Origin: Patescibacteria group bacterium | GTDB taxonomy: Bacteria > Patescibacteriota > Patescibacteriia > XYB2-FULL-38-15 | Direction of reading: 5' to 3' | Assembly: GCA_041650995.1 (NCBI GenBank) | Contig: JBAZJZ010000001.1 | Coordinates: forward strand, 491,302 to 555,301 | Length of the DNA: 64,000 nucleotides | Part shown: positions 3,417 to 57,064 of the stretch, in pieces | Numbering within the stretch: the stretch's first letter is position 1 | How the letters are laid out: each line of letters starts with the position of its first letter | Program-made: the position numbers and the translations under genes | Notes under the pieces: model-generated | Told to the model about the DNA's origin: nothing | The model's database searches: none | Seen by the model: the letters and a program-made list of their open reading frames with translations, nothing else

Positions 3417-4526
3417 TTATTTATTATTCTGTTCCTTTTTCCATTTTAAATATGCCTCCATAAACTGTTCCAAATCTCCATTAAGCACCGCGTCTGTATC
3501 CGCTGTTTCAAGTTTTGTTCTGTGATCTTTAACCATTCGGTACGGCTGCAAAACATATGACCGAATTTGATTTCCCCACGCCGCCAAAACTCCGGCTCGT
3601 AATTTATCAATTTCCTTTGTTCGGGTCTCCTCCTGCAGATGTAAAATTTTTGCTTTCAAAATTTTTAGGGCGGTTTCTTTATTTTGAGCCTGTGAACGTT
3701 CGCGCTGGCAGCTTACGGTGAGACCCGTGGGAAGATGAACAACTCTAACGGCCGAATAAGTTGTCTGCACGCTTTGTCCGCCGTGTCCGCTTGATAGATA
3801 TGTGTCGATCCGCAAATCTTTCGAATCCAATTTTATTTCTGAGACATCGTCAATTTCCGGCAAAACTTCAACTAAAGCAAACGAAGTATGCCGCATTTTT
3901 TCCGCATCAAAGGGAGAAATACGGACTAAGCGATGAACACCGGATTCACTCCGAAGCCATCCATAAGCCATCCGACCGGTGACTCTTACTGTTATGCTCT
4001 TAATGCCCGCTTCAGAACCACGCGTTTCATCAATAATTTCTGTTTTCCATCCCTTCTTCTCGCAAAACCTAAAATACATTCTGAGAAGCATCTCTGCCCA
4101 ATCCTGGGCTTCAGTGCCGCCCGTTCCGGCATGAATACTCAAAATGGCGTTCGCTCGATCGTGCGGGCCGGAAAATAAAACAAAAAATTCCAACTTCCTA
4201 AATTGAACGAGAAGCTCATTATATTTTTTTTCAATCTCTTCGCGCAAAGAAACTTCTTTGTCCTTTTGATCGAGCTTGGCCAAATCCAAAATATCCCCCA
4301 CTTCTTTTTTTAATTTTTCCCAAACTTCAACCTCTTCTTTCAAATCATTCAATCTCTGGTTCGTTTCCTTCGCCGCTTCCTGATCTTTCCAAAACTCCGG
4401 CGCCAAAGTTAATTTTTCCAATTTGACGATTTCTTTTTTACTATTTCCTAACTTTAAAAGTTCAAAGGCCTTTTCTATCCTCTGCTCCAACTCTTCTATG
4501 CTTTTAACTAATTCGTCCATTTTCAT
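3417..4526 (-). CDS. prfB: Peptide chain release factor 2
   Basis: The SPF tripeptide and the GGQ motif (SGHGGQSVQTT) are both present. The gene is encoded as a single uninterrupted ORF with no programmed +1 frameshift site. Confidence 0.9.
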   Translation of the reverse strand: MKMDELVKSIEELEQRIEKAFELLKLGNSKKEIVKLEKLTLAPEFWKDQEAAKETNQRLNDLKEEVEVWEKLKKEVGDILDLAKLDQKDKEVSLREEIEKKYNELLVQFRKLEFFVLFSGPHDRANAILSIHAGTGGTEAQDWAEMLLRMYFRFCEKKGWKTEIIDETRGSEAGIKSITVRVTGRMAYGWLRSESGVHRLVRISPFDAEKMRHTSFALVEVLPEIDDVSEIKLDSKDLRIDTYLSSGHGGQSVQTTYSAVRVVHLPTGLTVSCQRERSQAQNKETALKILKAKILHLQEETRTKEIDKLRAGVLAAWGNQIRSYVLQPYRMVKDHRTKLETADTDAVLNGDLEQFMEAYLKWKKEQNNK

Positions 4527-4553
4527 AATTTACAACTAACCTCCCGATTAAAG

Positions 4554-5801
4554 TTATTCTTTATACTCGGCAAGTGTTACTCTCACATCTTTTTCTTCGC
4601 CTTTGTGCAAAACTTTCAAAGTTATTTCATCGCCCGGCTTAGATTTAGCAATTTCCTTGGCTAAAGGATGATCTTCGTCTATTTTTTGACCATTCATTTC
4701 CAAAATTATATCATTCTCAACCAAACCCGCTTTGTCGGCCGGTGAGCCGGGCACTATGGCTAAATCCGTCTGCTTTTGGCCGCGGACAATTAATGCCCCA
4801 TAATCTTTTTCCAATTGATTTTCCTTGGCTATTTCTTGATTAATCAAAACATAACGAACGCCGAGCCATGGCCGAATAATTTTTCCATTCATTTTTACGC
4901 TCTCTATATCCTGCTTGGCCGCATTAATCGGAATAGCAAAACCGATCAACTGTCCTTCCTGGTTCATCGCTGTGTTAATGCCAATAACCTGCCCAGCGAG
5001 ATTCACGAGCGGTCCGCCGGAATTTCCCGGATTTATAGCCGCGTCAGTTTGAAGCGCTTCTTCAATAACCTCTGAACCACCAAGTCGATCACTCGCCACG
5101 ATCCGTCGCCCTATGCCAGAAATTATGCCTTTAGTCACGGCATTTTTATATTCCCCGAGAGAATTACCGATGGCAATAACCGTCTGACCAATTTCAATTT
5201 TATCGGAATCTCCCAATTCCACGGTTGGCAAATCTTTGGCGTCAATTTTTAAGACGGCAATATCCAAAACCGGATCAGTGGCTAAAATTTTCGCGTCATA
5301 TCTTTGATCGTCATTTGTAATAACCGTATATTCCGCCGCTGTGTCTGAGACCACATGTTTATTAGTTAAAATCAACCCATCCGAAGAAATTATAAAGCCC
5401 GTTCCCCCGCCAATTTCCGTTTTGCCCGTGCCGCCACTATTACCGCCCGTGTTTGGCTGCTCAAAACCAAAAGGAAAATTAAAACCAAACAAATCGTAAG
5501 GAAAAGTATTTGAATTATTAATTTTACTTAAATCTTTAGAAATAATTATTGAAACAACGGCCGGAGCAACTTTTTTTACGGCGCTAATTGTTGCCGACTC
5601 CTCAATAACCGCCTGAGTAAACACTCTCTCACTTTCATCGTTTCCGATTACAACGTCTTCACCTAAAAAATTCTTTTGAAACCATGGAACAATATGGCTC
5701 TTACCATAAAGCCCGCCGAGCACACCACCCACTCCGCCAAAAATTAAGCCAACGAGCGCCGCAACAGCAATAATTTTTTGAAAAGATTTATCTTGAAACA
5801 T
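4554..5801 (-). CDS. htrA: HtrA/DegP-family periplasmic serine protease with a C-terminal PDZ domain
   Basis: There is an N-terminal TM anchor, a trypsin-like catalytic core with GNSGGPL around the active Ser, and a C-terminal PDZ-like region. Confidence 0.85.
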   Translation of the reverse strand: MFQDKSFQKIIAVAALVGLIFGGVGGVLGGLYGKSHIVPWFQKNFLGEDVVIGNDESERVFTQAVIEESATISAVKKVAPAVVSIIISKDLSKINNSNTFPYDLFGFNFPFGFEQPNTGGNSGGTGKTEIGGGTGFIISSDGLILTNKHVVSDTAAEYTVITNDDQRYDAKILATDPVLDIAVLKIDAKDLPTVELGDSDKIEIGQTVIAIGNSLGEYKNAVTKGIISGIGRRIVASDRLGGSEVIEEALQTDAAINPGNSGGPLVNLAGQVIGINTAMNQEGQLIGFAIPINAAKQDIESVKMNGKIIRPWLGVRYVLINQEIAKENQLEKDYGALIVRGQKQTDLAIVPGSPADKAGLVENDIILEMNGQKIDEDHPLAKEIAKSKPGDEITLKVLHKGEEKDVRVTLAEYKE

Positions 5802-5871
5802 AGGTTTGAAAATTCCTAATTGACCTAATTAACCTAACGTCTAAATAAATCACAGTATCCAATAACCAAAA

Positions 5872-5891
5872 CTTTAGACATTAGACATTTT
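5872..5891 (-). promoter_or_regulatory. Conserved 20-mer (rc AAAATGTCTAATGTCTAAAG; tandem TGTCTAA heptads) about 70-90 nt upstream of htrA
   Basis: The same motif in the same gene-relative orientation and at similar distance lies upstream of topA at 36440-36459. Neighbouring short motifs (TTTGGTCATTT, AGAAATT) are also shared. Confidence 0.4.
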
Positions 5892-5930
5892 AGCATTTGG
5901 TCATTTATTAAAAATTAGAAATTGGGTTAA

Positions 5931-6245
5931 TTATTTATTCATCCTTTTATTAAATCTATAAATTACTTGCGCAAAATTATTTATTTTATTTTTTCTGACC
6001 TCTATCCCCTCTTCTCCAAGCAGTTCTGCCTTTTTTCTGATTCCACCGGCATATCCACCCAAACTTCCATCTGCTTTTACCACCCGATGACAAGGAATTT
6101 TTATGGGATGAGGATTTTTATGAAGAGCATTTCCAACCGCCCGGGGGCTGGTCTTTAAAATTCGCGCGATTTCTCCATATGTCGAAACTTTTCCCTTCGG
6201 AATTTTTTTCACCAACAATAAAACTTTTTCCTGAAACGGAGTCAT
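5931..6245 (-). CDS. ogt: Methylated-DNA--protein-cysteine methyltransferase (Ogt/MGMT DNA-binding domain type)
   Basis: The PCHRVV active-site motif is present. The likely true start is the internal Met (MTPFQEKV...) at 6245; the longer track ORF to 6293 would read through the upstream terminator hairpin. Confidence 0.8.
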   Translation of the reverse strand: MTPFQEKVLLLVKKIPKGKVSTYGEIARILKTSPRAVGNALHKNPHPIKIPCHRVVKADGSLGGYAGGIRKKAELLGEEGIEVRKNKINNFAQVIYRFNKRMNK

Positions 6246-6282
6246 ATTAATTATAGCAAAAAAATGGGTAAAAGTTAATAAA

Positions 6283-6310
6283 AGAGAGAGCACCCTTTAC
6301 TGCTCTCTCT
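6283..6310 (-). terminator. Rho-independent terminator hairpin (AGAGAGAGCA / TGCTCTCTCT stem) followed by a T-run on the minus strand
   Basis: A perfect 10-bp inverted repeat with an 8-nt loop sits immediately downstream of the Cys-rich peptide ORF on the minus strand. The minus strand then reads TTTTATTAACTTTT. Confidence 0.6.
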
Positions 6311-6334
6311 CAAGGCTGACCTACCCCACACCGA

Positions 6335-6502
6335 CTAGCACTTGCAGTCGCAACTGCAATCGGCGCAATCGCAACAGTCGCAATTGCTGCGGTCGCCGGA
6401 GGTCTGTGGGCCTCTCGAAGTCCGCCGCAGGTCCTTCTTCGACAACGGCTTGGCAGCCGCCCTCTTGCCCTTGAGGGCACGGACCATTTGCACAGCGCTC
6501 AT
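6335..6502 (-). CDS. 55-aa Cys/Asp-rich candidate RiPP precursor peptide (MSAVQMVRALKGKRAAAKPLSKKDLRRTSRGPQTSGDRSNCDCCDCADCSCDCKC)
   Basis: Hand translation of the minus strand gives this peptide. Its ATG overlaps the TGA stop of the upstream radical SAM gene (ATGA), and an AAGGAGGT Shine-Dalgarno sits 6 nt upstream. It has a basic leader and a C-terminal core with 8 Cys and 6 Asp in 16 residues. It falls below the 60-aa cutoff of the ORF track. Confidence 0.7.
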   Translation of the reverse strand: MSAVQMVRALKGKRAAAKPLSKKDLRRTSRGPQTSGDRSNCDCCDCADCSCDCKC

Positions 6503-7602
6503 TCCTTTACCTCCTTTCTACTGATAATTTCCTCTGGGTCGAAATGAGTCCAGAGGAAAGGACAGCCTCCTACACACTTCCCCCAGTGACGACAGCCCTT
6601 ACACTTCTCGTGAGGATATCGCCATATCTCACGCCGGAAGACTCCGTGGATGCCCTTCCTGCCGTACCAGACCTTGGCAAAGTCTGTCGCGGTTTTTACG
6701 GATTGCTCGCTCAGGTTGAAGAGCGGCCGCCCGACGAAGTGAGTGCACGGCAGAACATTGCCGTTAGGTTCGAACACCGCACCCGAGCCATAGAAGATGT
6801 GACAGTGGACACCATCGGAGATGCAGCCGATGGTCATCATCTCGTCCAGCAACGATTGATCAAACAAGCACAACGGAATCGTCGCGAAGAACTTCACCTT
6901 GATTCCTTTCGCCTTTAACGCCAAATAGGCGTCGGTGACGATTTGAGCCGTATGGGCCGGAGACAAGGCGAAAGACTCAGTTTTCTCTTGGCTACCGCCA
7001 GCCGAAGGCAAACCAACGTTAAAGAGGATGTTAACCACTCCCATTTTGTGCATCAACTCAGCTAGCGGAATCACTTCTCCGAAGTTGTGTCTGCTGACAG
7101 TCAGCAGAGTGTTGAACGACAGACCAAGCCTGAGACAATTCTCCACGCCCGCCATCGTCTCTCGAAAACTCAAGGTTCTGGTCACCGCGTTGTGGACTTT
7201 GGCGCTAGATCCCTCTACAGAGATGCTAGCGTGCTTTAGCCCGACATCGACAAGCGACCGTATGTACAGAGGATTGGCTAGTCTGCGTCCGTTGGTCACC
7301 AACTTGAACTCGATGTCAAACTGACTGCCTGCGCGTATCAGTTCAGCCAATCGGGGGTAGAGTGTTGGCTCACCGCCGATCAACAAACAGTCAGACGCTC
7401 CCATCTCTTTCATCATTCCACAGATTCTGATAGCCTGGTCAAAATCCATTGGCCGATCAACGAACTGACTGTGTTCGGCATAGCAACCGGCGCAATGATT
7501 GTTGCAGCCATAAGTCAACGCCAACCAGAACGTCTTGATCTGCGGTCGTTCTGTCCTTCCCATTTTTCTCTCCTTGCTTCTTCGCCAAGAACTCACGTTC
7601 AT
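6499..7602 (-). CDS. Radical SAM enzyme with a C-terminal SPASM/twitch domain (peptide-modifying maturase type)
   Basis: The CX3CX2C motif is present (GCNNHCAGCYAE). The C-terminal Cys cluster (CISDGVHCH...PCTHF...CKGCRHWGKCVGGCPF) is typical of SPASM domains. GC content and codon usage are markedly higher than in neighbouring genes. Confidence 0.8.
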   Translation of the reverse strand: MNVSSWRRSKERKMGRTERPQIKTFWLALTYGCNNHCAGCYAEHSQFVDRPMDFDQAIRICGMMKEMGASDCLLIGGEPTLYPRLAELIRAGSQFDIEFKLVTNGRRLANPLYIRSLVDVGLKHASISVEGSSAKVHNAVTRTLSFRETMAGVENCLRLGLSFNTLLTVSRHNFGEVIPLAELMHKMGVVNILFNVGLPSAGGSQEKTESFALSPAHTAQIVTDAYLALKAKGIKVKFFATIPLCLFDQSLLDEMMTIGCISDGVHCHIFYGSGAVFEPNGNVLPCTHFVGRPLFNLSEQSVKTATDFAKVWYGRKGIHGVFRREIWRYPHEKCKGCRHWGKCVGGCPFLWTHFDPEEIISRKEVKE

Positions 7603-7622
7603 GTTACATTAGCGTATATTCG

Positions 7623-8297
7623 CTATGTCGTCAACACCTCAACTCCGTATTTAACTAACTGATTAAAATTCTTATTTTTTTGCCACAAAATTTCCAATTT
7701 TTTTCTAAAAGCCTGATGCAGATCATATCCCTTATCTTTTTGGCATAGATATTTTTTAAACTCATAATTTAAAATAACCGTGAGAGATTCCTTTAAATAC
7801 TCAAATTGCCGAGGAGAGAGATTTTTAACCGGCTGCTTATTTTTACAATAAGCAATAAATTGAAAGTGCAACAATTCGTGCAGGAACGTTCCTAAATAAC
7901 ATTTAGCTGACCATACCGCGCAAAGCCACACGTACCCTTTTTCATAGTTATAAGGACAACGCGGAAAAGTGGTTAAAAAACAAGTAAACTTTTTTCTGTA
8001 CAATTGTTTTCCGGTTATTTTTTCCATCAGGCTGCACGCTTCTTGGGCATTATCATCAAATAATTTTTGAGCCTCCGCCAAATTTTTCTCCAAAACTTTT
8101 TTATGTTCTTTATAATATTTTTTCAAATAAGGTATTAAAAATTTAAAAGCTTCTTTTTCGGTTTTGCCATAAATTTTTTTCCACAGACTCTCCCCTACTC
8201 TTTGTTTCCAATCAACGCCGTGGGAAATTTTATTGCAAGCATTCCACCAATTCCAGGCGTCTTTTTTAATGTCTAGCTTGATGTTTATAGTTACCAT
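7623..8297 (-). CDS. Hypothetical protein with an HExxH motif (FLHELLHFQF); possible zinc metallopeptidase
   Basis: The 224-aa ORF is AT-rich like the host genome. The only recognisable feature is the HELLH motif. It lies immediately upstream of, and co-directional with, the rSAM cassette. Confidence 0.4.
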   Translation of the reverse strand: MVTINIKLDIKKDAWNWWNACNKISHGVDWKQRVGESLWKKIYGKTEKEAFKFLIPYLKKYYKEHKKVLEKNLAEAQKLFDDNAQEACSLMEKITGKQLYRKKFTCFLTTFPRCPYNYEKGYVWLCAVWSAKCYLGTFLHELLHFQFIAYCKNKQPVKNLSPRQFEYLKESLTVILNYEFKKYLCQKDKGYDLHQAFRKKLEILWQKNKNFNQLVKYGVEVLTT

Positions 8298-8356
8298 AAG
8301 TATAAATCTTTTTTATTTAACTTCTATATCCGGCCTACTGTTTATGGTTAGACTGT

Positions 8357-9064
8357 TCACCCCCGCACTTCACAAATTTCAAAATTATCTTTTATTTCAT
8401 CACGCAATTTCTTTAAAAATTCTATTGAATACGGTTTTATTTCACGAAATTCCGGACTGAAAATTTTCTCGCCTGATCTAAATTGCTGCAAATAATATTT
8501 TTTTGCTCCCCTGATAAAATTCGCAAGGTCCAAAATATTTTCTTCATTATGCAGCCCCGGAACGACTGTGGTACGAAATTCATATTCTAAACCGCTTTGC
8601 ATAATAATGCCAATACTTTGTTTAATATTCTCTATATCCACTGTGGCGCCAGCAACTTTTTCATATGATTCTTTTTGCAATAAAGTTTTTATATCCATAG
8701 AAATATAATCAATCATTTTTTCCGCTATGAGCGCCTTAAGCATTTCCGGATTTGTTCCATTGGTATCTAATTTTACCAAAAAACCAAGAATTCTAATTTT
8801 TTTTATAAACTCCGGCAAATCTGGATGAAGAGTCGGCTCTCCTCCTGTGATGCAAACCCCGTCAAGCAAACCGTGGCGCGAATTTAAAAAATCAAAAAAA
8901 ACTTTTTCTTCAATAATTTCCGATAATTTAAATTCAGCCGGATCAATTAATTCCGGATTATGGCAAAAATGACAACGAAAATTACAACCGACAGTAAAAA
9001 CCGTGCAAGCAATTTTGCCGGGGTAATCAATCAAAGTTAGTTTTTGTAATCCACCGATAATCAT
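8357..9064 (-). CDS. nrdG: Anaerobic ribonucleoside-triphosphate reductase activating protein (radical SAM)
   Basis: An N-terminal CNFRCHFCHN radical SAM cluster is present. Size and gene neighbourhood (next to nrdD) fit NrdG. Confidence 0.8.
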   Translation of the reverse strand: MIIGGLQKLTLIDYPGKIACTVFTVGCNFRCHFCHNPELIDPAEFKLSEIIEEKVFFDFLNSRHGLLDGVCITGGEPTLHPDLPEFIKKIRILGFLVKLDTNGTNPEMLKALIAEKMIDYISMDIKTLLQKESYEKVAGATVDIENIKQSIGIIMQSGLEYEFRTTVVPGLHNEENILDLANFIRGAKKYYLQQFRSGEKIFSPEFREIKPYSIEFLKKLRDEIKDNFEICEVRG

Positions 9065-9135
9065 AGGGACATTTTATCACAAAACACGGCTCCCATCAAT
9101 GGAAAGCCGTGTTTTAAGATTTCATCATTTTTTAC

Positions 9136-9285
9136 TTAAACTTCTTCCAGCTGTTTATCATAAGTCTTTCTCTCTCCAAATTCCGCCTGCTTGCCATCGT
9201 TCCATTGACTTACCGGTCGAAGATAGCCGACGACGCGGGAATAAATTTCACACGCCTGCCGTTTTGATTGTTTTTCCTCCGTCAT
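9136..9285 (-). CDS. Stand-alone glycyl-radical domain minigene (49 aa: MTEEKQSKRQACEIYSRVVGYLRPVSQWNDGKQAEFGERKTYDKQLEEV)
   Basis: Hand translation shows the glycyl-radical loop consensus of class III RNR (YSRVVGY...RPV..WN.GK). The ORF lies about 30 nt downstream of the nrdD stop, in a different frame and with in-frame stops between. It is not in the ORF track (<60 aa). Confidence 0.6.
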   Translation of the reverse strand: MTEEKQSKRQACEIYSRVVGYLRPVSQWNDGKQAEFGERKTYDKQLEEV

Positions 9286-9317
9286 ATATTTATTGTTATT
9301 TATTATTTTGTGATTAA

Positions 9318-11348
9318 TTAATCTTTATAACCAATTTCTTCGTCACACTTCGGACAAAACGGATGTTCACCGGCAAGGTATCCATGTTTCGGACAGACAC
9401 TAAAAGTCGGGGTCAAAGAAAAATAAGGAAGATGAAATTGGCTCGCGATTTTTTTAACAAGTATTTTTGCCGCGTCACCAGAAGGCAATCTTTCTCCGAT
9501 AAATCCATGAAGCACTGTTCCTCCAGTATACCGCGTTTGCAGGTCGTCTTGCAAGCGCAAGGCTTCAAAATAATCATTAGTAAAGCCAACGGGCAGATGA
9601 GATGAGTTTGTGTAATAAGGAGTGGCGCCTTTTTCCCGATGAGCCTTTTCGTTGGCGACAATAATATCCGGATATTTTATTTTATCTTTTTTCACCAAAC
9701 TGTAGCTCGTGCCTTCTCCGGGAGTTGCTTCAAGATTATAAAGATTATTTGTTTCTAGTTGATAATCCATCAACCTTTCCCTCATAAAATCAAGAACGGA
9801 TTTGGCAAAATCATGGCCTTCCTCCGTAGTGATATTCCTACCCAAGAAATTGAGGCATGCCTCGTTCATACCAATCAAACCGATCGTGTTGAAATGGTTT
9901 CTCCAATATTCATTAAATCTTTCTTTTATTGGCGCGAGATAATGTCGGCAATAAGGATAAAGTCCTTTTCCGGTTAGAGTTTCCACAACTTCTCTTTTTA
10001 TTTCAAGACTCTTTTTGGCCAAATCCATTAAACGCGCCAATCTGTCAAAAAATTCTTTTCTTGTTTTTGAAAGATAACCGATGCGAGGCAAATTGATTGT
10101 TACAACGCCGATTGAACCGGTTAAAGGATTGGCCGCGAAAAGTCCGCCGCCGCGTTTTCTAAGTTCGCGGTTATCAAGGCGCAAGCGGCAACACATTGAT
10201 CGCGCGTCTTCAGCTTTCATATCTGAATTTACAAAATTGGCAAAATAAGGAATGCCGTACTTGGCCGTCATTTCCCAAATTGAATCCAACTCTTTCTTCT
10301 CCCAATTAAAATCTGGCGTGATATTATAGGTCGGAATTGGAAAAGAAAAAACTCTACCCTTCGCGTCACCAGAAATCATCACTTCGGCAAAGGCCTGATT
10401 AAACATATCCATTTCCGCCTGAAATTCTCCGTATTTTTCTTTTTGTGGCACTCCGCCAACAATCACTGCTTCATCCGCCATGTTTTTGGGCGGGGTAAGA
10501 TCCATAGTGACGTTGGTAAACGGCGTCTGAAAACCAACGCGAGTGGGAACATTAACATTAAAAACAAATTCCTGCATGGCTTGTTTCACATCTTTGTAGG
10601 ACAAACCATCATAGCGAATAAAAGGAGCAAGAAGCGTGTCAAAATTGGCAAACGCCTGCGCGCCCGCTACCTCTCCCTGAAGAGTATAAAAGAAATTAAC
10701 AATCTGCCCCAACGCGCTCCTCAAGTGTTTTGCCGGTTTTGATTCTATCTTTCCGGCAACTCCCCCAAAACCGCGCGTCAAAAGATCATGGAGATCCCAA
10801 CCGCAACAATAAGCCGCCAAAATTTGCAAATCATGAATATGAAAATCTCCATCCACGTAAGCATCTCTGATTTCGGGCGGATAAACCTTATTTAGCCAAT
10901 AATGAGAACTTATCGCTGAACTAATATGATTATTCAATCCTTGCAAAGAAAACGCCATGTTGCTGTTTTCTCGAACCAACCAATCCAATTTATCCAAATA
11001 ATTGCCCATTATCTGGTTTCCATCAACCAACGCATTCAGTTCGCGAATTTTTGCGTGCTGATCGCGGTAGAGAATATACGCTTTAGCCACCCTAATCTGT
11101 CTGGCTCTAATCAAAACTTCTTCTACAATATCCTGAATTTCTTCCACGGCCGGTATTGAACGATGATGAAATTTTTTATTTAAAATTTTCATCACCTGGT
11201 CAGAGAGCCGATTCGCTAATTTTTCGTCTTTTTCTCCGATTGCCTCTATTGCCTTTCCAACAGCTACCGTAACTTTTCCTTGGTCAAAATCAACAATGCG
11301 GCCATCTCTTTTTCTTATTTGGGTGACTTTATTTTGACTATAAATCAT
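9318..11348 (-). CDS. nrdD: Anaerobic ribonucleoside-triphosphate reductase (class III) catalytic body. It ends after the Zn-ribbon half-site and lacks the glycyl-radical loop.
   Basis: An N-terminal ATP-cone is present. The product has NrdD-like length and a C-terminal ...CPKHGY...CPKCD Zn-binding segment. The RVxGY Gly-radical motif is missing from this ORF. Confidence 0.8.
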   Translation of the reverse strand: MIYSQNKVTQIRKRDGRIVDFDQGKVTVAVGKAIEAIGEKDEKLANRLSDQVMKILNKKFHHRSIPAVEEIQDIVEEVLIRARQIRVAKAYILYRDQHAKIRELNALVDGNQIMGNYLDKLDWLVRENSNMAFSLQGLNNHISSAISSHYWLNKVYPPEIRDAYVDGDFHIHDLQILAAYCCGWDLHDLLTRGFGGVAGKIESKPAKHLRSALGQIVNFFYTLQGEVAGAQAFANFDTLLAPFIRYDGLSYKDVKQAMQEFVFNVNVPTRVGFQTPFTNVTMDLTPPKNMADEAVIVGGVPQKEKYGEFQAEMDMFNQAFAEVMISGDAKGRVFSFPIPTYNITPDFNWEKKELDSIWEMTAKYGIPYFANFVNSDMKAEDARSMCCRLRLDNRELRKRGGGLFAANPLTGSIGVVTINLPRIGYLSKTRKEFFDRLARLMDLAKKSLEIKREVVETLTGKGLYPYCRHYLAPIKERFNEYWRNHFNTIGLIGMNEACLNFLGRNITTEEGHDFAKSVLDFMRERLMDYQLETNNLYNLEATPGEGTSYSLVKKDKIKYPDIIVANEKAHREKGATPYYTNSSHLPVGFTNDYFEALRLQDDLQTRYTGGTVLHGFIGERLPSGDAAKILVKKIASQFHLPYFSLTPTFSVCPKHGYLAGEHPFCPKCDEEIGYKD

Positions 11349-16791: not shown

Positions 16792-19700
16792 TTATCTTAC
16801 GGTAAAGTAAATACTGCGTTCTCCGCCAATACTTTCGATTGGCGGCGCTGGTGCCGGAATAACTGGTGAGGAATCAAGTCCAAAGTCAACCGTACCGTCT
16901 AAATTATAAGTAACATTATAATTACCACTCGGCGTTCCACTCACATAAACAATTCTGAGATGATGCCGGCCTCTTGATAAGGTGTTTACTGCTGCAAACG
17001 TTGATCGACAAACTTCATCACCCCACGCACAAACTCTCCACTGGACAACTTTATGATTATCAATGTAAACGTCGAAAATATCATCGTCGACGCCAGTGAC
17101 GCGTAAATTTACTGTCGCACAATTTGTCTCGCCGTCCATACAACCATCAACATTACTATTATCATTTGGATCGCAAGCGTCAATTATTCCGTCATTATCA
17201 GCATCCGGATTTCTCGCACCGCTAGGCCCATATTTTCTATTGTCGCAAGCTTGGCCAGCGGCGCAAGTGATAGCACAAGATGCCGGACTACAAGTCGGCG
17301 CGGCTAAATCATATGGTTTTGCCCAAGGATTTGAAGTATCAACGCAGATCCAATTCGCGGGATAGGCCGGTAAATGGCTATCGCACTGCTCTGTTCCATT
17401 AACTGTACCATCGCCGCAAGTCGGACCGCTTGCAGTTCGCAAGGTGCATTCGCGGCTGCAATAATTGCAAGTTGAACCATATGGCGCCGTGCACGGCGTG
17501 CCATTGACCGCATCTCCGGAATCGCACGCCTCTATTCCGGCTCTTGTAAACCCGTCGCCGCAACGGGAACTTTGACAATTAACGCAAGCATCAGTATTTA
17601 TGTCATTACCATCGTCACATTGTTCGCCACCCTGCACAATTCCGTCACCACATTCCCCTGTCACGGTGCAAGAGCTCCAGCCTTCGTCTTGCCAACGGCA
17701 TTGTCTTATATCACCAGGTATTTCACAATTTAAAGTTCTGACCCTTGGATAACCCGTTCCTGTCTCTGGGGCACATAACAGACATTCCTCACCTGACCCG
17801 CAATCCGCGTTACTTTCACAAATTACAGTATAATAGCTAGGAAGGATTGGACTTTCTGGACTTAAATATTCCTCAACCGGAACACAAACACCTCTTGAGG
17901 AAATTTGATTTCTATCACACTCCTCTTGCGGTTCATCCACCACTGTATTCCCACAATATGGCGCCGAGCCAACACAACCCGCGGCGCAATACGGCGTGCC
18001 GTCAGGTTTTTTTCCATATCGGCCATTATCCGCTCCATCGTCGCACCGTTCACCGTAAGCACTTTGCAAAATTCCATCACCACAATAACCGCCGCTCATT
18101 CGGCAAACCGTGGAGCACTGATATTGATTTGTCGGCAATGTCCCGCCACCCGGAATTCTTCCCCCTCCCGGTCCGCGGTCGCAGGCTTCGCCAGTATCAA
18201 TAATTCCATTACCACAAGTGGCAAGACATGTCCCCCAATCATTCCAGCGGCAAGTAGCTAAATTACAAGTACGGCTTTGGCGGCCGTTTGCGCCGCTCGA
18301 GGCGGTACAAACTTGTTCGTTAACGCGGCATGTTCCGCCGCCACAATCCGCGTCAGTCCGGCAAGAAATTGTCGGATCATTAGAGCACGTATTTGCCAAA
18401 CTTGGTTCGCATTCTTCGCTGGCGTTAATTATTCCGTCGCCGCAAATTCCGCCCACGCTGTAAATTGTGTTATTGCAAACGTCTTCATATTGGATTCTTG
18501 ACGGATGCGCTGCCCGGAACCAATGCCAGCTTGGATTTGTTTCCGGAGGAATCATGTATTCTAAATCACTACCAATATTATAAAATCCCGTTTCTGACTC
18601 ATAACGATATTGATAAATATGCGATAAGCCTGGGCAAACGTAAGACTCTCCACTTGTATTCCAGCAAGTATCGGCGCTGTAAGGATCCAGACAACCTTGA
18701 AATTTATTTAATGGGTCAGTCGGCAAGCCGCCGCCGAGCTCCTGGCCAAGGGTTGCCCAAGAGTCCCATTTGCTAGTGGAAATCCCGCGGACATACGAAC
18801 CCGCTTCCAATTTTGGCGGATAGCCTCGCATGGCCATATATCTTTCCACTGCCTCTTTAATTTTATCCAAATCAGATAAACGCTGGACATCGCGCGCCAG
18901 TTTATCTTTTGGCGAATCACATAAAAATTGTGTCGGAGTTTGTGGACAATCTAAATCCGCTGAACAAGAAATTACCGCGCCATCCGCATCTCGCGCCACG
19001 ACTCCCTCGGCGTTACGGCACACTTTGTTGTTCGCCAAATTAATATTAAATTTCCAATTATCCACTAACTGATTATAAATATCAATCGTGTCTTGGCTCG
19101 CGCCTTCATTATATGAAATTAAATAAACATTTGTATAAATATCCGGTTCGGAACCAGAACCGTCCGCACCTCTCGGTTGATTGGCCGCTGAAACATAAAT
19201 CGTCCGGCCGTCTTCCGCCGCTTGATATTGGTCAATTGTTTTTCCGCCCGAAGCTGATGGCCTGAATCCCTGAGCTAAATACCAATCAAACAAAGCCAGG
19301 TGATTTTTGTTTGTGTAAATTCTAATGCCAATCGCGTCAGACGAGCTTTGACATGAGCCGCCCCCTGGGGCGCAAGGACTTTCCGTGTTGCAAGGAAGTT
19401 TGGAAAGAGTGCAGTAACTTCCGCCGACAAACAAGAAATATTCCCTGAGCAAAAAATCTGTCGAGCCGACAGGCGCGGGCGGATTATTTACAACCGGCGG
19501 ATCGCTAATTGTCGGCAAATCGTCGCCAAAACCAATTTCTCCCCTATCCTGACAATAATATGTTTCAAAGTTATATGTTTCATCAATCAATGCTTCCCCG
19601 GTCACACCAAACCTGTCTGGCCACGGATTTTCACAAAGGAAAACTGTTATGTCGGCTCCGCTGCTTATAACTTTCCCCACGGTGCGCGGCGACAAAACTG

Positions 19701-22700
19701 TATCCGTCGTAATTTTTGCCGAAACCAAAATTCTTGCTTCGCCATTTTTATTTTGCGCTGTCGCTGTCTGGCGCTCGCTAAATTGGCAAATACCCCCTGA
19801 ACCACAATCACTATTTCTATTACATCTAGTTCCTGTTTCAACGCAAGATCCCTCGGGAACCAAGTCAACTACAGTTAAATCGTTGGACAACCAATCCTGC
19901 CATTCCCAGTAATAAACATCCGGAAGGCGAGAAAGCATTCTCCCTCGCGCGTCACGGGCCGTGGCAAGAAATTCATGAGTTTCTTCGCTTCGCGTAAAGA
20001 CATAAGAAGCGGGAGAAACTACTACTTGGCTCAAAGCACAAATACTGCTTCCAGTTTCAAAATCCCACCGATAAATTTCCCTGCCACTATAAGCTTCTGG
20101 ATATTCACCATACAACCTTCCGCCTCCCAAAGCCACACCTTTTGAATTTCTAATTCCTTTAATTTCCGGCGATCCGGGATTATCACCTAAAAGTAAAACT
20201 CTATACCTGCGTCCGCCGTCAAAAGCTTTAGTCGGGCTAAAGCTTGCTTCGGTCACCAAATCACTGCCCTTACTTACAACTGTAGATGACGCCGTTCCTG
20301 GCCAGACACACCATGGAGAGGGCGGAGCGGCGCTCACTGGCCGGCCAAACAATGCTTGGCTTAACTGGTTAATTACATTTTTAACTTGACTCAAAATTTC
20401 TAAATCTTTTTCTATTTTGGAAATCGGCTTGATTAATAATCTCGCGATCGGCACTGGCAGCCATTTTTTTATTTTTTGAACAAAGTGGAAACCACCCGTT
20501 TCTTCTCCGGTCCACAAAGCCAGAGAAGTTGTCCCCTCAGGGCACGCGCCGCCGTAATCGCCAACCACTAAAATATTCCCTGTTATGCTTGCCGTTTCCA
20601 TTATTTGATCAAAAGTCACGGAAATTTTAGCATTGCGGCAGACATCAACCGCTCCGGATTCACAAGCAGTTGCGCCATCCCGAGTAGGATCGCAGTTTGC
20701 TACTTTCGGTTTAAAATAGCAGCAAGTATTCCGACCCACTCCTAGCACACAATCAGCATCACTTGTGCAGGTTTGCGAAGTCGTCCCCTCGCACACATGA
20801 GATGGCATACATGACAAATGAATCGCTCCACAATCTTGTCCGCCGCAGCGCAAAGTTAAATCACCGCTATCAGATTTTCCTTCGGTCTCAGCAAAAATTT
20901 CCGTAGTGCTGGAATTTACTCCGGCAGCCACAGCTTCTGGCGCAAGATCAATTGCTGTTGCCGTTTGGTATGGATCAATTCTCGTATCTCTAACTGTTCC
21001 CTCGTTTAAACAAGTTACGCTGCAACCATCACCAGAAACCGCGTTCCCGTCATCACAATCTTCGCCGCGTTCTACTGAACGATTTCCGCAAACTCCCCCG
21101 CCGGCTACAGATCCTTCGTGCTGACAGATATTATTACATCCGTCGCCCGAACGAGTATTTCCGTCGTCGCAGTCCTCGCCCACGTCAATAACTCTATTGC
21201 CACAATGAGTTGATCCTTCATTTAAACAAGCTCCCGCTCCGCCGCAGGGCGTACCAATTCCTGGCGGACAGCCAGTGCACCCGTCGAGAGAAACTGTGTT
21301 GCCGTCATCACAATCTTCGCCAAATTCTTTTACACTATTTCCGCAAGACGGATAATTATTGTTATTTGTAATCGTCGCTACTCCCGGATCGGCCGAAGTC
21401 CATCTCCAATTGTAGTCCATAACAGAAAGACGCTGACCGATCGGACTGCAAAGATCTGGATTACTAAAAGGCGTGGAAGAATAATTTTGTGTTTCGCCGA
21501 TAAAATTTAAAATTGCATTTTGCGGATTAACCACGACACGATCCACAGTGCAAGGATTGGTATCATCTTTAGTCTTGAAAGACCAAGAGTATGAATTTGG
21601 ACTCCCGACCGGATAATTTAAATCAGTCAAATGAACACCGCTTGCTGATGTTACATCATCGGAAATTACCGCGCGATAAAAAGTATTGGGTAAAAATAGT
21701 GTGCCTGCGGGTGGAGCAATTATTAATTTCTTTGTCGTATCATTATAAGAAAGACCCAAAGGAAGAACTTCTGTCAACGGCCGTGTCCCTTCATTTAAAC
21801 AAGTTATTGTGTTACAACCTGCGGGAAATGGCGAACCATCACAATCCTCACCCTCTTCAATAATTCCATTGCCACAATTTGGTCCGAGATTTCCCTCATT
21901 TAAACAGGTTACGCGATTACAACGCTCCGGAAACGGCACGCCATCGCAATCTTCTCCTGTCTCCCGGCGGTCATTACCGCAATATGATCCATAACGCGCG
22001 TTTGATCCTTCATTTAAACAAGTCTCACTGCAACCATCACCAGAAACCGCATTCCCGTCATCACAATCTTCGCCTGGCTCAAGCACACCATTACCACATT
22101 TCCAAATATAAAGATGAACATTCGCCGCGCTCTCCACGCTCGCCCGATTCATATTTGTATTAAATTCCGCGCCGATTTCCGCGTTAATACAAGCGTCGCT
22201 GCAATTCGGCCAACTATCTTTTACCTTTGGATCAGTAAAATCTATGGTCAAATTTCCCGAGCCAGACTTTATTTCACTCGGAATCTCGCCAGTAATCCGA
22301 ACCGGCGAGCCAACTTCTGTTTCTGCCCGAGCTGTAGCAATGGTACGCGGAGTCGCACTGATTGCAACTACTGCCCTTATAATATCTGATGAAGTCCAGC
22401 GCCAATCATACGGACTACAGTCAATAGTTAGACAAACATCACCGGCGGCGTAACAAAGGCCATTATAATCTTGCGTCGCGTCAACACTCGTCAATGTCAT
22501 TTCATAAGGCAAAACTCCCACCAAACCAATCGCGCAAGTTTCGTCACTGTCGCGAGTTTTAAATTGCCAAACATAGTCCCCGCCTTCCACACCGTCTCGA
22601 TCGCCGTCCAAGAAAAATCCTCCGTCCGGACATCCGACGCCGCCGAGACAACTTTTTATTCCTGTGCCTGCAGCCACATCACTTTTTAAAGTTACTTGAT

Positions 22701-53728: not shown

Positions 53729-55021
53729 TTATGGTCTTAATCTATTAATCATTCTTGGAAAAGGGATCGTTTCGCGAACATGATGAATGCCGCACATCCA
53801 GCCGGTGATGCGCTCCAACCCGTAACCAAAGCCTGAGTGAGGAACCGAGCCGTATTTTCTTAAATCTAAATACCATTGAAAATCTTCAAGCAGCATTTTT
53901 TCTTCTTTCATTCGCGCAAGCAATAAATCATAATTGTCTTCACGCTCCGAGCCACCGATGATTTCTCCGTGGCCTTCCGGCGCGATTAAATCTGAACCCA
54001 AAACCAGTTCGGGATTTTTTGGATCGCGTTTCATATAAAAAGCTTTAATTTGCCGTGGCCACTTTTCCACAAAAATCGGTACGTCGGAATCTTGAGTCAG
54101 CAAAGTTTCATCGTCAGCACCCAAATCTTCGCCATCTTTAATATCAGACCCTAACGCTTGAACTTTTTTAACCGCTTCATGATAAGTCATTCGCCCAAAG
54201 GGAGCTTGAACTTTTTCTAATTTGGAAATATCTCGTTCCAAAATTTCCAATTCTTTTCTATTTTTTTCTAAAACTTTTTTCACGATATGGCAGATCAATT
54301 CTTCCTGAATTTTCATATTGCCCTCGTGATTAACAAAAGCCGCCTCGGCGTCCATCATCCAAAATTCCGTTAAGTGTCGGCGAGTTTTTGATTTTTCCGC
54401 CCGGAAAGTCGGGCCAAAGTCAAAGCATCGGCCAAAACTCATTGCCGCGGCTTCAAGATAAAGTTGACCTGACTGCGCAAGATAAGCTTTTCCTAAATCA
54501 AAATACGGAACTTCAAAAAGGGTCGTTGTTCCCTCGCAGGCGGTCGGGGTCAAAATCGGCGTGTCAATTTTTATAAAACCATTCTGATTAAAATATTCAT
54601 AAGTCGCGTTGATGACAGTATTTCTAACGCGAAGCGCCGCCCATTGTTTTGATGAGCGAAGCCAGAGGTGTCTTTGATCTAACAAAAAATCCGGGCCATG
54701 TTCTTTTTTTCCAATCGGGTACTCTTCAGCAATTTGAAGTATTTTTAAATTTTTAACTTGAAGTTCATACTCTTCTTTTTTGGGATGTTTACTGACAGTT
54801 CCGGAAATTTCTATCGAACTTTCTATAGTTATTTTTTCGCAAGCTTCCCAGATTTCTGGAGCTACTTCTTTTTTAGAAACAATCGCCTGGACAAAGCCTG
54901 AACCGTCACGAACTTGTAAAAAGAAAATGCTACCCGAGGAACGAAAATTAAAAATCCAGCCGCGAATCGCGACTTCCTGGCCTAAATATTGGCTAATATC
55001 TTTCAATAAAATCGTCTGCAT
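53729..55021 (-). CDS. asnS: Asparaginyl-tRNA synthetase
   Basis: It is a class IIb enzyme. The motif region reads GEIIGGSERE, and the C-terminus reads …PHSGFGYGLERI…IPFPR. Confidence 0.7.
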   Translation of the reverse strand: MQTILLKDISQYLGQEVAIRGWIFNFRSSGSIFFLQVRDGSGFVQAIVSKKEVAPEIWEACEKITIESSIEISGTVSKHPKKEEYELQVKNLKILQIAEEYPIGKKEHGPDFLLDQRHLWLRSSKQWAALRVRNTVINATYEYFNQNGFIKIDTPILTPTACEGTTTLFEVPYFDLGKAYLAQSGQLYLEAAAMSFGRCFDFGPTFRAEKSKTRRHLTEFWMMDAEAAFVNHEGNMKIQEELICHIVKKVLEKNRKELEILERDISKLEKVQAPFGRMTYHEAVKKVQALGSDIKDGEDLGADDETLLTQDSDVPIFVEKWPRQIKAFYMKRDPKNPELVLGSDLIAPEGHGEIIGGSEREDNYDLLLARMKEEKMLLEDFQWYLDLRKYGSVPHSGFGYGLERITGWMCGIHHVRETIPFPRMINRLRP

Positions 55022-55104: not shown

Positions 55105-55419
55105 TCACTCCCTTCCTTCCGCGACTCGACCATCTTCGCCGCGGTCATTCTGCGCCTTGATGACTGCGAGTTCTTGTTTGAACTCACGCCACCATCGATT
55201 GAACTTGAAACTCGCCTTTGCAACTAAGATAAACCAAACGCCGAGGAAAGTGAGAGGCAGCGCGATGCTTAAGAATACCCACCCGCTCATTCCTCCGGCG
55301 ATGTAATCCCAGTTCACGATGCCGATACACACCCAGACGAGCGCGGCCAGAAAGATTGCTAACCATGACGGAAAAGTCGCGCCGATGTTTAGTTCGGCGT
55401 TCTCTTTCTCGTTTTCCAT
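55105..55419 (-). CDS. Small two-TM protein with a charged C-terminal tail (104 aa) in a GC-rich insert
   Basis: The translation is MENEKENAELNIGATFPSWLAIFLAALVWVCIGIV...WFILVAKASFKFNRWWREFKQELAVIKAQNDRGEDG. Confidence 0.45.
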   Translation of the reverse strand: MENEKENAELNIGATFPSWLAIFLAALVWVCIGIVNWDYIAGGMSGWVFLSIALPLTFLGVWFILVAKASFKFNRWWREFKQELAVIKAQNDRGEDGRVAEGRE

Positions 55420-55531
55420 CTCGCCCTCCTTCTGCCTCAACTTTATCATAAAACCAAAAAACGTCAATTTATTTTATAAAAAAGCCGATCCAGAATATTT
55501 TTCTGAATCGGCGAGAACGTTGGAACTGCTC

Positions 55532-56212
55532 CTATCTGTCAAGGAACAGCCGGCGGCGACAGGAAGGCACACCGCGGTCTTCTCTCCGACTATCCAACTG
55601 GCTAAAGTTCTGTGTCGGACCGCCAGAACTAAGCCAAAGTTCTGGCACGCATTGCCGGCGAATGCCGTTTCCTGACCACGGTTCACTCTGGTAGTCCGCA
55701 TCAATCAACGCGAAGGCGTGATGAATGAGCGATTCCGGTGAGTGGAGAGCGAGAGCGATCGCTTCTTCCATAATGAGGCCGTGCCGGCAAGCGCGTTTGA
55801 TCTCGCCCGTAACTTCGCCCGTAGTCCGGCCCACATTCCCAGCGCCGTCGTCCACGTCGCAAATGAGATGGGGCGATTTCGACTCACCGATTCCCTCGGG
55901 ATTCCACAATTTGTCACACTCGAGACTCGAATAACCGTGCTTCTTTGCCACGACGAGCAGTTCCATTTGCTTCGCGACAGAAAGCATGGCGTGAGGAATC
56001 ACGACAAGAAACGGGGTACGCTCGGGAATCGTCTCGCCGACCGCATGAAGAAGGCCCGTGGGCGAATCGGCGAGCATGGAAAGATAGAGTCGAAGATCTC
56101 TCTCTGCCCACCCGAGCGCCGTATGCCAACCACCTGCGACGAGTCGCTCCACCTGCCGATCAAACACCTGCCGAAGCAGAGTTCCTTCATCCGGACAACT
56201 CATCGGAAGCAT
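55532..56212 (-). CDS. Hypothetical protein (226 aa) in a GC-rich insert
   Basis: It is the most protein-like of several overlapping frames in this GC-rich stretch. No recognised motif was found. Confidence 0.35.
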   Translation of the reverse strand: MLPMSCPDEGTLLRQVFDRQVERLVAGGWHTALGWAERDLRLYLSMLADSPTGLLHAVGETIPERTPFLVVIPHAMLSVAKQMELLVVAKKHGYSSLECDKLWNPEGIGESKSPHLICDVDDGAGNVGRTTGEVTGEIKRACRHGLIMEEAIALALHSPESLIHHAFALIDADYQSEPWSGNGIRRQCVPELWLSSGGPTQNFSQLDSRREDRGVPSCRRRLFLDR

Positions 56213-56302: not shown

Positions 56303-57064
56303 TCAAATCTTTAATGTTTTGGTCAAATAGTTTATCCACATAAGGCTTTTTAGCTCTCTATCCCGATGAACCTCGGTAAAAATATCAATAATTTTTGCCA
56401 ACTCCCCGACATGCGCTTTGGTAATTTTAAGCACCACTATTTTTTTAAAATTATTTTCTAAAACAAAACGTGAAATTTTTATCGCCGCAGTGGAAATCGG
56501 TAGCTCACCCCCGCCACACTGACCGCAAGTTAGTCCTCCTCTCCCCGCGTCAAAAAAATTTCTGCTCGGGGTAATTTTATTTTTACATTTAACGCAAGTA
56601 TAAAGTTCTGGCATCCAACCGAGAATGGTTAATAATTTTAAAACAAAAAATTTTGATAAGATATATAATTTTAAAAAACTTTTAATTTTCACCTCATTAA
56701 AAATTTCTAAAATTTCCAAAAGCAATTCATAGATTTTTAAATCCGGATGATCAGTTTTAGTAAAAACATCCACTATTTCTAGACAAAAACTTGCAAGCAC
56801 GGTTTTTCCTAAATCACTTTTGATATTTAAAAAATTTTTTTCTCTGGCAGCACCAGCAATTTGATAGTTTGTTTTCCCTGGTGCCACCATTAAATCAATC
56901 ACGGAAAATAGTTCCAGGTGCCCAGCCATTTTACTTTTTATTTTTCGTACGCCCTTTGCCACCGCGGAAATTTTACCGAGCTCGTCGGTATAAATTACAA
57001 AAAGACGATCGCTTTCACGATAGTCTTGTTTTCTTAAAATTATACCTCGGACAAGACGCGTCAT
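56303..57064 (-). CDS. recO: DNA repair protein RecO
   Basis: An N-terminal OB fold (…ILRKQDYRESDRLFVI…) is followed by a C-terminal Cys4 zinc motif. Confidence 0.8.
   Translation of the reverse strand: MTRLVRGIILRKQDYRESDRLFVIYTDELGKISAVAKGVRKIKSKMAGHLELFSVIDLMVAPGKTNYQIAGAAREKNFLNIKSDLGKTVLASFCLEIVDVFTKTDHPDLKIYELLLEILEIFNEVKIKSFLKLYILSKFFVLKLLTILGWMPELYTCVKCKNKITPSRNFFDAGRGGLTCGQCGGGELPISTAAIKISRFVLENNFKKIVVLKITKAHVGELAKIIDIFTEVHRDRELKSLMWINYLTKTLKI

Follow-up and report, generated by a model that had tools for sequence, protein, structure and literature searches.

A GC-rich stretch of a Patescibacteria genome is probably part of a three-gene RiPP cassette exchanged by recombination

Introduction

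In the ranthipeptide systems (PapA/PapB of freyrasin; SCIFF/CteB), radical S-adenosylmethionine (rSAM) enzymes with a SPASM domain form non-alpha-carbon thioethers that link Cys to Asp, Glu or Thr in a ribosomally made, post-translationally modified peptide (RiPP). The enzyme PapB joins the Cys sulfur to the C-beta of Asp within CX3D motifs and accepts Cys-Xn-Asp spacings of n = 0–6 (PMC9413430). We describe here a cassette of three genes, all on the minus strand, that encode an rSAM/SPASM maturase, a Cys/Asp-rich precursor peptide and a protein with an HExxH motif, and that lie together in a 64,000-nucleotide stretch (hereafter the window) of a Patescibacteria metagenome-assembled genome (contig JBAZJZ010000001.1, positions 491,302–555,301). 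An original prediction, made from the letters of this stretch alone, had seen in the first two of these genes a self-contained, GC-rich cassette recently acquired from a higher-GC donor. Our own reading, to which we give a probability of about 0.62, is that the GC-rich stretch is one part of a three-gene RiPP cassette that has been exchanged by recombination and has two histories inside it.

As a feature of the genome, this is an ordinary small accessory segment with foreign codon use. It resembles compositional genomic islets in its atypical GC content, third-position GC (GC3), codon and tetranucleotide use, in the sharp boundaries at gene ends, in being missing from the sister genome and other congeners, and in a cargo that amounts to a self-sufficient accessory function. 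It is unlike them in lacking an integrase, a transposase, a tRNA site and direct repeats, its presence or absence arising through homologous recombination in flanking core genes, and in that the variable unit is a mosaic of one host-like and two foreign-looking genes.

The genes that it carries make up a so far undescribed variant of the rSAM RiPP systems. As in ranthipeptide systems, an rSAM/SPASM maturase stands beside a short precursor that consists of a leader and, at the C-terminus, a core rich in Cys; this core has many Cys-Xn-Asp spacings of the kind that PapB accepts (PMC9413430). Unlike ranthipeptides and SCIFF peptides, the cassette falls below the cutoff of the curated models (e.g., TIGR03974/TIGR03973) and has no detectable RiPP recognition element (RRE) or PqqD domain; its core is nearly only Cys and Asp (CDCxDCx), it has a compact gluzincin partner, and its hosts are Patescibacteria and DPANN. 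With the sactipeptide maturases (SkfB, AlbA, ThnB) the enzyme shares a radical SAM core and an auxiliary-cluster domain, and SkfB is its best sequence match among solved structures (3.8e-22); however, that match is limited to the radical SAM core (residues 10–171) and the precursor is unlike known sactipeptides. The HExxH protein differs from the M1- and thermolysin-type gluzincins, including the lanthipeptide leader peptidase EryP/AplP, in its length of 224 aa, in having no accessory domains and in its identity of only ~10–15%; it lies outside the Pfam and NCBIfam families, some of its homologs are standalone or fused to transglutaminase or NUDIX domains, and it is a peptidase by its predicted fold.

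Composition and gene content of the GC-rich segment

The window as a whole has 41.8% GC, and the stretch at 6300–7620 has 53.2% as against 41.5% elsewhere, the highest value among all 1321-bp windows of the 64 kb. A two-change-point likelihood fit over positions 4500–10000 placed the GC-rich segment at 6284..7586 (53.7% GC; log-likelihood ratio 57), with 39.1% and 35.9% GC on its two sides, so that it takes in the rSAM gene, the precursor gene and the terminator. The contrast sits mostly at synonymous sites. The rSAM gene has a GC3 of 0.63 and the peptide gene one of 0.79, compared with a background mean of 0.38 (sd 0.09, 56 genes), and synonymous codon use, scored as per-codon likelihood under the usage of the other window genes, deviates with z of -5.9 and -5.3, respectively. 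The preference is seen in individual codons (fractions in the island vs. background: AAG, 0.67 vs. 0.18; GAG, 0.70 vs. 0.21; ATC, 0.70 vs. 0.17; TTC, 0.71 vs. 0.15), and by tetranucleotide distance 6301–7600 ranks first of 627 windows (raw z 7.1; base-composition-normalized z 6.3). The flanking ogt and HExxH genes have 36% and 33% GC, and the codon use of the HExxH gene is host-like (z +2.1). The island foreseen at about 6300–7620, with its GC-rich codons and AT-richer flanks, is therefore borne out by the sliding GC and tetranucleotide profiles that had been suggested as a check, although the estimate of roughly 55% GC comes down to 53%. The fitted segment comes very close to the limits first proposed (6283 to about 7602–7620), and the hairpin named there exists and is followed by a U-tract; the rSAM start lies at 7563 and not at 7602.

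The first and second codon positions of the rSAM gene (GC1 and GC2) fall on the regression of its own family for its GC3 (z -1.3 and +0.3), which indicates a gene that looks equilibrated at ~50–56% GC and not a shift of synonymous sites only. The Arg/Lys content of the island genes moves with GC3, as do GC1 and GC2. Translational selection for high expression was considered as a source of the bias and rejected: codon use is ordinary in the window's ribosomal-protein genes, and a preference for AAG and GAG is no signature of expression.

The maturase gene (6499..7563, 354 aa) was assigned from Pfam, its conserved cysteines and the source annotation, which starts at M14 of a longer open reading frame (ORF). 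Because the annotated ATG at 7563 is preceded by an AAGGAG ribosome-binding site, the longer ORF from 7602 is probably unused. The 55-aa precursor (MSAVQMVRALKGKRAAAKPLSKKDLRRTSRGPQTSGDRSNCDCCDCADCSCDCKC; 6335..6502), recognized from its sequence and from homologous ORFs, has the C-terminal end CDCCDCADCSCDCKC; its ATG and the stop codon of the rSAM gene overlap (ATGA), an AAGGAGG ribosome-binding site lies upstream, and the ORF is called as a gene in other assemblies. The cassette ends at its 3′ side in a terminator-like hairpin (6282..6311, minus strand) with an 11-bp stem followed by UUUUAUU, which was found by direct RNA folding, was missed by a terminator scan and lies at the edge of homology with cassette-free relatives. 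The third gene (7623..8297) encodes the 224-aa HExxH protein, a predicted gluzincin-fold zinc peptidase and partner of the rSAM-precursor pair. There is no transporter or immunity gene inside the three-gene cassette.

Shine-Dalgarno sequences are rare at the gene starts of this host, where leaders are A/T-rich and a GGAG-like match occurs in 9 of 56 (~4 of them strong). Strong ones precede the rSAM and peptide genes and a DUF5701 gene elsewhere in the window; the HExxH gene, like most host genes, has none. We considered these sites as a signature of the donor and discarded the idea, since the site of the peptide gene (AAAGGAGG) is kept across cassettes irrespective of the host and so is intrinsic to the cassette, not diagnostic of a donor.

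Gene order in the genus and the junctions of the cassette

Relatives of the window, gathered by a search with nrdG, form a graded series: a sister genome (L167) and the further congeners L168/L169 (L168 is GCA_018818855.1) and L170/L171. A fourth congener is L172 (GCA_964649075.1). The sister is close (95–96% nucleotide identity), with protein identities of 100% for ftsZ, 99% for ftsA, 98% for htrA and 94% for nrdG, and nucleotide identity of 94–96% in the flanks. In L167, L168/L169 and L170/L171 the order is ybeY-dagK-ftsA-ftsZ-nrdD-nrdG-ogt-htrA-prfB, the gap between nrdG and ogt is 5–43 nt and the cassette is absent. By blastn the alignment with L167 breaks exactly at 8359 and 6275, 6276–8358 being replaced by 15 nt in the sister. 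The unit that sets the window's genome apart is thus the entire three-gene cassette, a strain-variable segment of 2083 bp (6276..8358, minus strand) delimited by blastn breakpoints, gene maps and junction alignments, and not the two-gene GC island.

Both edges of this segment carry traces of a diverged allele. On the ogt side, the 3′ half of ogt (5931–6099) is 98.2% identical to L167, whereas the 5′ half (6100–6245) is 78.1% identical, as distant as it is from L170 and L168. Sliding identity and a four-way alignment define a hyper-divergent tract at 6100..6275 (minus strand) that comprises the ogt promoter and the 5′ half of the gene; the promoter reads TTAACT-17-TATAAT at 6278–6250. On the nrdG side, the last four codons of nrdG (8357..8368, minus strand) form the left recombination boundary in the alignments: they read GTGCGGGGGTGA in the window, GTGCGGGAATGA in L172 and GTAAGGGAGTAG in L167, so that the window is of the L172 type. 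L172 also has, at the same place, a spacer homologous to the 59-nt nrdG-HExxH spacer of the window (8298..8356, minus strand, collinear alignment) and an HExxH gene of 76% identity, the two loci being collinear at 78.5% over 8596–7645. Beyond its nrdG-HExxH genes, L172 continues with an aromatic-lyase gene and hisS and has neither the rSAM-precursor pair nor ogt. The homology between the window and L172 stops at ~7600, at most 15 nt from the compositional change point.

The divergent 5′ half of ogt together with the L172-type end of nrdG places one crossover in the final codons of nrdG and the other at ~6100 within ogt. To judge from these alignments, what separates the window from its sister is the replacement of one allele through homologous recombination with a diverged allele from a congener. 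As to direction, the three empty relatives and the lack of a close relative of the rSAM gene favor gain in the window over loss in L167. Upstream of the syntenic block in L170 (77–883), where other relatives have a TSP3-repeat protein, we noted a 268-aa protein with a SPASM-domain match.

The maturase, the precursor and their family

The maturase matches Pfam Radical_SAM (3.8e-23), and its SPASM match of 21.1 bits is just below the cutoff of 21.5. Among 42 homologs the CX3CX2C cysteines (C20, C24 and C27) are invariant, and the cysteines C254-X13-G-X4-C273 and C321-X2-C324-X5-C330-X3-C334 are conserved in keeping with the auxiliary-cluster pattern CX9-15GX4C ... CX2CX5CX3C that we used for SPASM domains. 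No NCBIfam family reached its cutoff (best ~73 bits vs. cutoffs of 268–650) and the precursor had no NCBIfam match. The radical SAM core begins ~13 residues into the 354-aa protein, and Pfam and NCBIfam gave no PqqD/RRE domain match. The closest solved structures by sequence are those of SkfB, PqqE, SuiB, anSME and CteB.

The family comprises ~80 proteins at E < 1e-40, none more than 63% identical to the window's enzyme in a database of 5.8 billion clusters, and scans of genomes and metagenomes returned 160 loci, mainly from Patescibacteria (Parcubacteria, Uhrbacteria, Veblenbacteria and others) and DPANN archaea. More than 25 related loci have a short, homologous Cys/Asp-rich ORF directly downstream of the rSAM gene. 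Its core falls into a clade that ends in ...CCDCxDCSCDCKC, to which the window belongs, and a clade that ends in ...CCDCxDCSCDCVN (the CDCVN clade below), and more distant cores have plain CDCxDCx repeats. We found no description of the cassette family in Pfam, NCBIfam, the PDB or the full-text literature, including that on the candidate phyla radiation (CPR)/Patescibacteria.

Many metagenomic contigs with members of the family start inside the rSAM gene or ~30–300 nt upstream of it (L006, L007, L010, L089, L091, L092, L098, L105 and L146), and the L178 contig ends just past the HExxH gene; these ends could reflect breaks of the assembly graph at a strain-variable junction. The closest cassette, that of L165, is probably a decaying copy: its rSAM ORF (3978–4946) is truncated at the N-terminus and has no CX3CX2C motif, a convergent DHH gene lies downstream where no precursor ORF is seen, and GC3 is still 0.59.

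The HExxH protein as the third member

An HExxH gene adjoins the rSAM gene in 26 of the 52 related loci with usable flanks, in Patescibacteria and DPANN alike. The order of the window (HExxH, rSAM, peptide) recurs in L085/L086, L087, L088, L101, L102 and L165, all among the cassettes nearest to the window's, and the CDCVN clade has the order rSAM, peptide, HExxH. In 50 homologs H140, E141, H144 and the downstream Glu ligand E170 are invariant. The protein is predicted to have a thermolysin-like gluzincin peptidase fold; it has no match in Pfam or NCBIfam and no sequence match in the PDB. Standalone HExxH genes exist in other Patescibacteria, and some homologs (P0273, P0282, P0284, P0315, P0325 and P0289) are fused to transglutaminase-core (PF01841) or NUDIX domains, fusions that point to a wider range of roles for the peptidase module than the rSAM cassette.

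In the tree, the HExxH gene of the window pairs with that of L172 at 100% bootstrap (76% protein identity; 78.5% DNA identity including the spacer), and their divergence resembles that of the neighboring nrdG (69%) and ybeY (61%). HExxH genes are not intrinsically AT-rich, since they track host GC in high-GC hosts, where their GC3 is 0.59–0.60 at a host GC of 54–56%.

The GC step across the family

The step in GC between the rSAM and HExxH genes is not confined to the window. In L165, which has another genomic context and identities to the window of 63% (rSAM) and 65% (HExxH), GC3 is 0.59 in the rSAM gene vs. 0.38 in the HExxH gene at a host GC3 of 0.40, and in L101 the values are 0.57 vs. 0.30. 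In the CDCVN clade a 1.9-kb rSAM-peptide-HExxH cassette has 78–93% DNA identity between loci with nearly nothing in common in their flanks, at a GC3 of ~0.48 for rSAM and 0.21–0.29 for HExxH. That this cassette travels whole, with the step inside it, means that a GC boundary need not be a transfer boundary.

Other comparisons separate the genes. In L004 and L164 the rSAM gene groups with the CDCKC type (99% bootstrap) but the HExxH gene with the CDCVN clade (100% bootstrap), and the two trees are incongruent. Family-wide, the GC3 of rSAM minus that of its host has a mean of -0.01 (sd 0.11) with outliers both ways, the window's +0.25 being the largest; deviations in both directions fit frequent transfer among hosts of different GC and argue against a universal selective bias. 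Taken together, the comparisons support a history of the rSAM-precursor pair apart from that of the HExxH gene and a GC-richer origin for the pair. We examined a GC-rich rSAM clade as the donor lineage and rejected it, its bootstrap being 1%; the inner topology of the tree is star-like and the window sits on a long unresolved branch. High-GC carriers exist (L006/L092 at 55%; L010 at 61%) and are not the closest relatives. We saw no whole high-GC three-gene cassette, the contigs of L006, L010 and L092 starting just upstream of the rSAM gene and that of L178 ending after the HExxH gene.

Discussion

On the reading that we prefer, the GC-rich 1.3 kb would be the maturase and precursor genes, with their terminator, of a RiPP cassette whose third member is the low-GC HExxH gene, and the 2,083-bp cassette (6276–8358) would sit as an accessory segment in the gap from nrdG to ogt. 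What distinguishes this locus from the sister genome would be due to homologous recombination with a diverged congener allele, with crossovers at the last codons of nrdG and at ~6100 in ogt. The rSAM-precursor pair would most likely have come from a GC-richer, Patescibacteria-type lineage and have been joined to a peptidase gene of resident type, possibly in the window's genus or earlier in the cassette's own history.

The gene content suggests that the three-gene cassette is likely a RiPP operon. The precursor would be translated in coupling with the maturase, the rSAM/SPASM enzyme would cross-link the CDCCDCADCSCDCKC core, and the leader would be cut off by the HExxH protein with its predicted gluzincin fold. 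Many Cys-Xn-Asp spacings in the range that PapB accepts occur in the CDCxDCx unit, and the likeliest chemistry may be Cys-to-Asp thioethers of the PapB/ranthipeptide type, with sactionine-type links or a metal-binding product as alternatives. Tentatively, and with rather less than even odds, we would go further and suppose that the rSAM-precursor pair is a two-gene module that exchanges on its own, repeatedly swapped in Patescibacteria and DPANN archaea beside a resident compact gluzincin gene, in a cross-domain RiPP pool of ultrasmall episymbionts, and that its product is a new RiPP class with a leaderless core of ~15 residues, nearly all Cys and Asp (CDCxDCx), densely cross-linked or metal-binding, made by an RRE-independent maturase.

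Several points weigh against the interpretation we have adopted. The 5′ segment of ogt does not polarize gain vs. loss, the window and L167 being equidistant from L170 and L168, and there is no mobility gene (integrase, transposase) or tRNA nearby and no clear target-site duplication or direct repeat at the junctions. No donor was identified: the relatives of the rSAM are all from Patescibacteria or DPANN, at 63% identity at best, and the nearest of them (55–63%) occur in low-GC and high-GC contexts alike. The GC1 and GC2 of the rSAM gene gave no lag behind GC3 from which to date an arrival by amelioration, GC1 being slightly under the value that GC3 predicts. The GC step in L165 and L101, which are ~60–65% identical to the window, is hard to fit to the neutral decay of one old chimera. 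Because the CDCVN cassette moves as a unit, the pair could have brought the HExxH gene of the window with it, and L172 could be a locus from which the pair was lost. Finally, the chemistry of the product and the role of the peptidase are predictions from sequence.

The last but one of these points leads to the alternative that survives best, though we hold it to be a good deal less probable than our own: that all three genes arrived jointly as one mobile cassette with the step already inside, the HExxH gene already AT-rich, and that L172 is a remnant that lost the pair. The indel relative to L167 spans all three genes, the CDCVN cassette has kept its step through moves between unrelated flanks, and the gene order shared with L165, L101, L086, L088 and L102 goes along with a similar divergence of the rSAM and HExxH genes from those loci. 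Joint arrival leaves the origin of the step unexplained, however, when HExxH genes elsewhere follow the GC of their hosts, and it does not sit well with an HExxH gene that groups with that of a congener at nrdG-like divergence beside an rSAM gene without any congener relative.

The scenario closest to the original prediction, in which a donor of higher GC recently and directly supplied a self-contained two-gene cassette that inserted between ogt and an HExxH gene already resident in the host, we regard as unlikely. It accounts well for a composition boundary (7586) that falls where homology with L172 ends, a congener that has nrdG-HExxH but not the pair, and for an HExxH gene that is host-like in codon use and without a ribosome-binding site; HExxH genes that stand alone in other Patescibacteria, the shuffling of the pair relative to HExxH elsewhere in the family and the lack of a close rSAM ortholog from any congener in the database agree with it too. 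But the HExxH gene is also missing from the sister genome, and the indel is a three-gene block; what the junctions record is homologous recombination, the partner being a congener allele of low GC that takes in the 5′ half of ogt; an order and spacing as in L165, L101, L086, L088 and L102 would be coincidence; and a pre-insertion allele with nrdG-HExxH-ogt was not found. Parts of the prediction stand. Of the two comparisons it had called for, the search for rSAM neighbors gave those described above, none of them >63% identical, and the comparison of related genomes showed the cassette to be missing from the nrdG-ogt junction of L167, L168/L169 and L170/L171, and so not universal. Horizontal acquisition agrees with the foreign composition, the absence from relatives and the separate history of the pair, even though the junctions themselves show recombination with a congener allele. 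The pair is not self-contained, given a conserved HExxH partner and a variable block of three genes, and the HExxH gene is no mere flanking host gene, being absent from the sister too and a partner across Patescibacteria and DPANN. That the transfer was recent and came directly from a higher-GC donor is not established, with the same step present in L165 and L101 and traveling with the CDCVN cassette.

It is very unlikely that no transfer took place and that the high GC3 of the rSAM and peptide genes was kept by selection or biased repair, e.g., for mRNA stability or the tuning of operon expression. Such a cause could explain why the step recurs in L165, L101, L007, L009, L089 and L093, why GC1 of the rSAM gene lies slightly under its predicted value and why the strong ribosome-binding site of the peptide gene is conserved among cassettes. 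It is opposed by the family-wide difference between rSAM and host GC3, which averages -0.01 with departures in both directions (many members are more AT-rich than their hosts), by amino-acid composition (GC1, GC2 and Arg/Lys) that moves with GC3, by a sister genome without the cassette and by ribosomal-protein genes in the window without such a bias. An assembly or binning chimera, with the GC-rich piece coming from another organism, would suit the sharp switches in composition and the many family contigs that end just upstream of rSAM or just after HExxH, but is scarcely credible when both junctions are identical in a 567-kb contig, a 99.9-kb ENA contig and a 4.7-kb Logan contig, when the ATGA overlap, operon layout and terminator are coherent, and when homologous cassettes have the same layout. 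With the same junction sequence found base for base in two other assemblies (ENA ERZ27247363 and Logan SRR8542065), the GC-rich stretch is no assembly artefact.

Patescibacteria have tiny genomes and few mobile elements. If the recombination reading is correct, the locus is a clean, base-resolved example of a change in gene content in this group, a 2-kb cassette that homologous recombination among congeneric species has inserted or removed, and it advises caution in calling islands from composition, since a GC boundary can fall within the transferred unit. The cargo appears to be an uncharacterized RiPP system found across Patescibacteria and DPANN, with an RRE-less rSAM/SPASM enzyme, a nearly Cys/Asp-only core and a compact gluzincin outside the curated families. 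Should the product be thioether-knotted or metal-binding, it could bear on the interactions of these episymbionts with their hosts or competitors, and the maturase would, if the proposed chemistry is true, extend the RiPP toolbox by a small, portable enzyme for cross-linking.

Additional observations in the window

Three further features were noted in the course of this work. Between nrdD (9318–11348) and nrdG (8357–9064), a 49-aa ORF at 9136–9285 (minus strand; its sequence includes CEIYSRVVGYLRPVSQW) carries an apparent NrdD glycyl-radical motif, and equivalent 49-aa ORFs in L168–L171 match Pfam NRDD; in this genus the glycyl-radical segment at the C-terminus of the anaerobic ribonucleotide reductase therefore seems to be encoded by a small ORF of its own. 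The ogt-htrA intergenic region (5809–5933) matches the ybeY-dagK intergenic region of L172 (532–656) with 76% identity over 129 nt, and is, as far as the alignment indicates, a dispersed intergenic repeat or small structured element. At 16792–25512 (minus strand) lies a giant ORF of 2906 aa with high second-position GC and an Arg/(Arg+Lys) of 0.66. Giant ORFs without a Pfam match are present on the contigs of relatives as well (2948 and 2758 aa in L167; 2743 aa in L170).

The GC-rich stretches at 17–28 kb were considered as comparable islands and set aside, as their GC comes from the second codon positions of the 2906-aa ORF and their GC3 is ordinary. The sole comparable GC3-rich island in the 64 kb lies at 55105–56212 (minus strand), between asnS (53729–55021) and recO (56303–57064). 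It encodes a 226-aa DUF5701 protein (GC 57%, GC3 0.60, Arg/(Arg+Lys) 0.75) with a strong ribosome-binding site (GGGAGGAAGGAG) and a 120-aa ORF to which no family was assigned (GC3 0.64). With codon-use z of -4.9 and -5.9 and a tetranucleotide z of 4.1, this island is probably another foreign insert.

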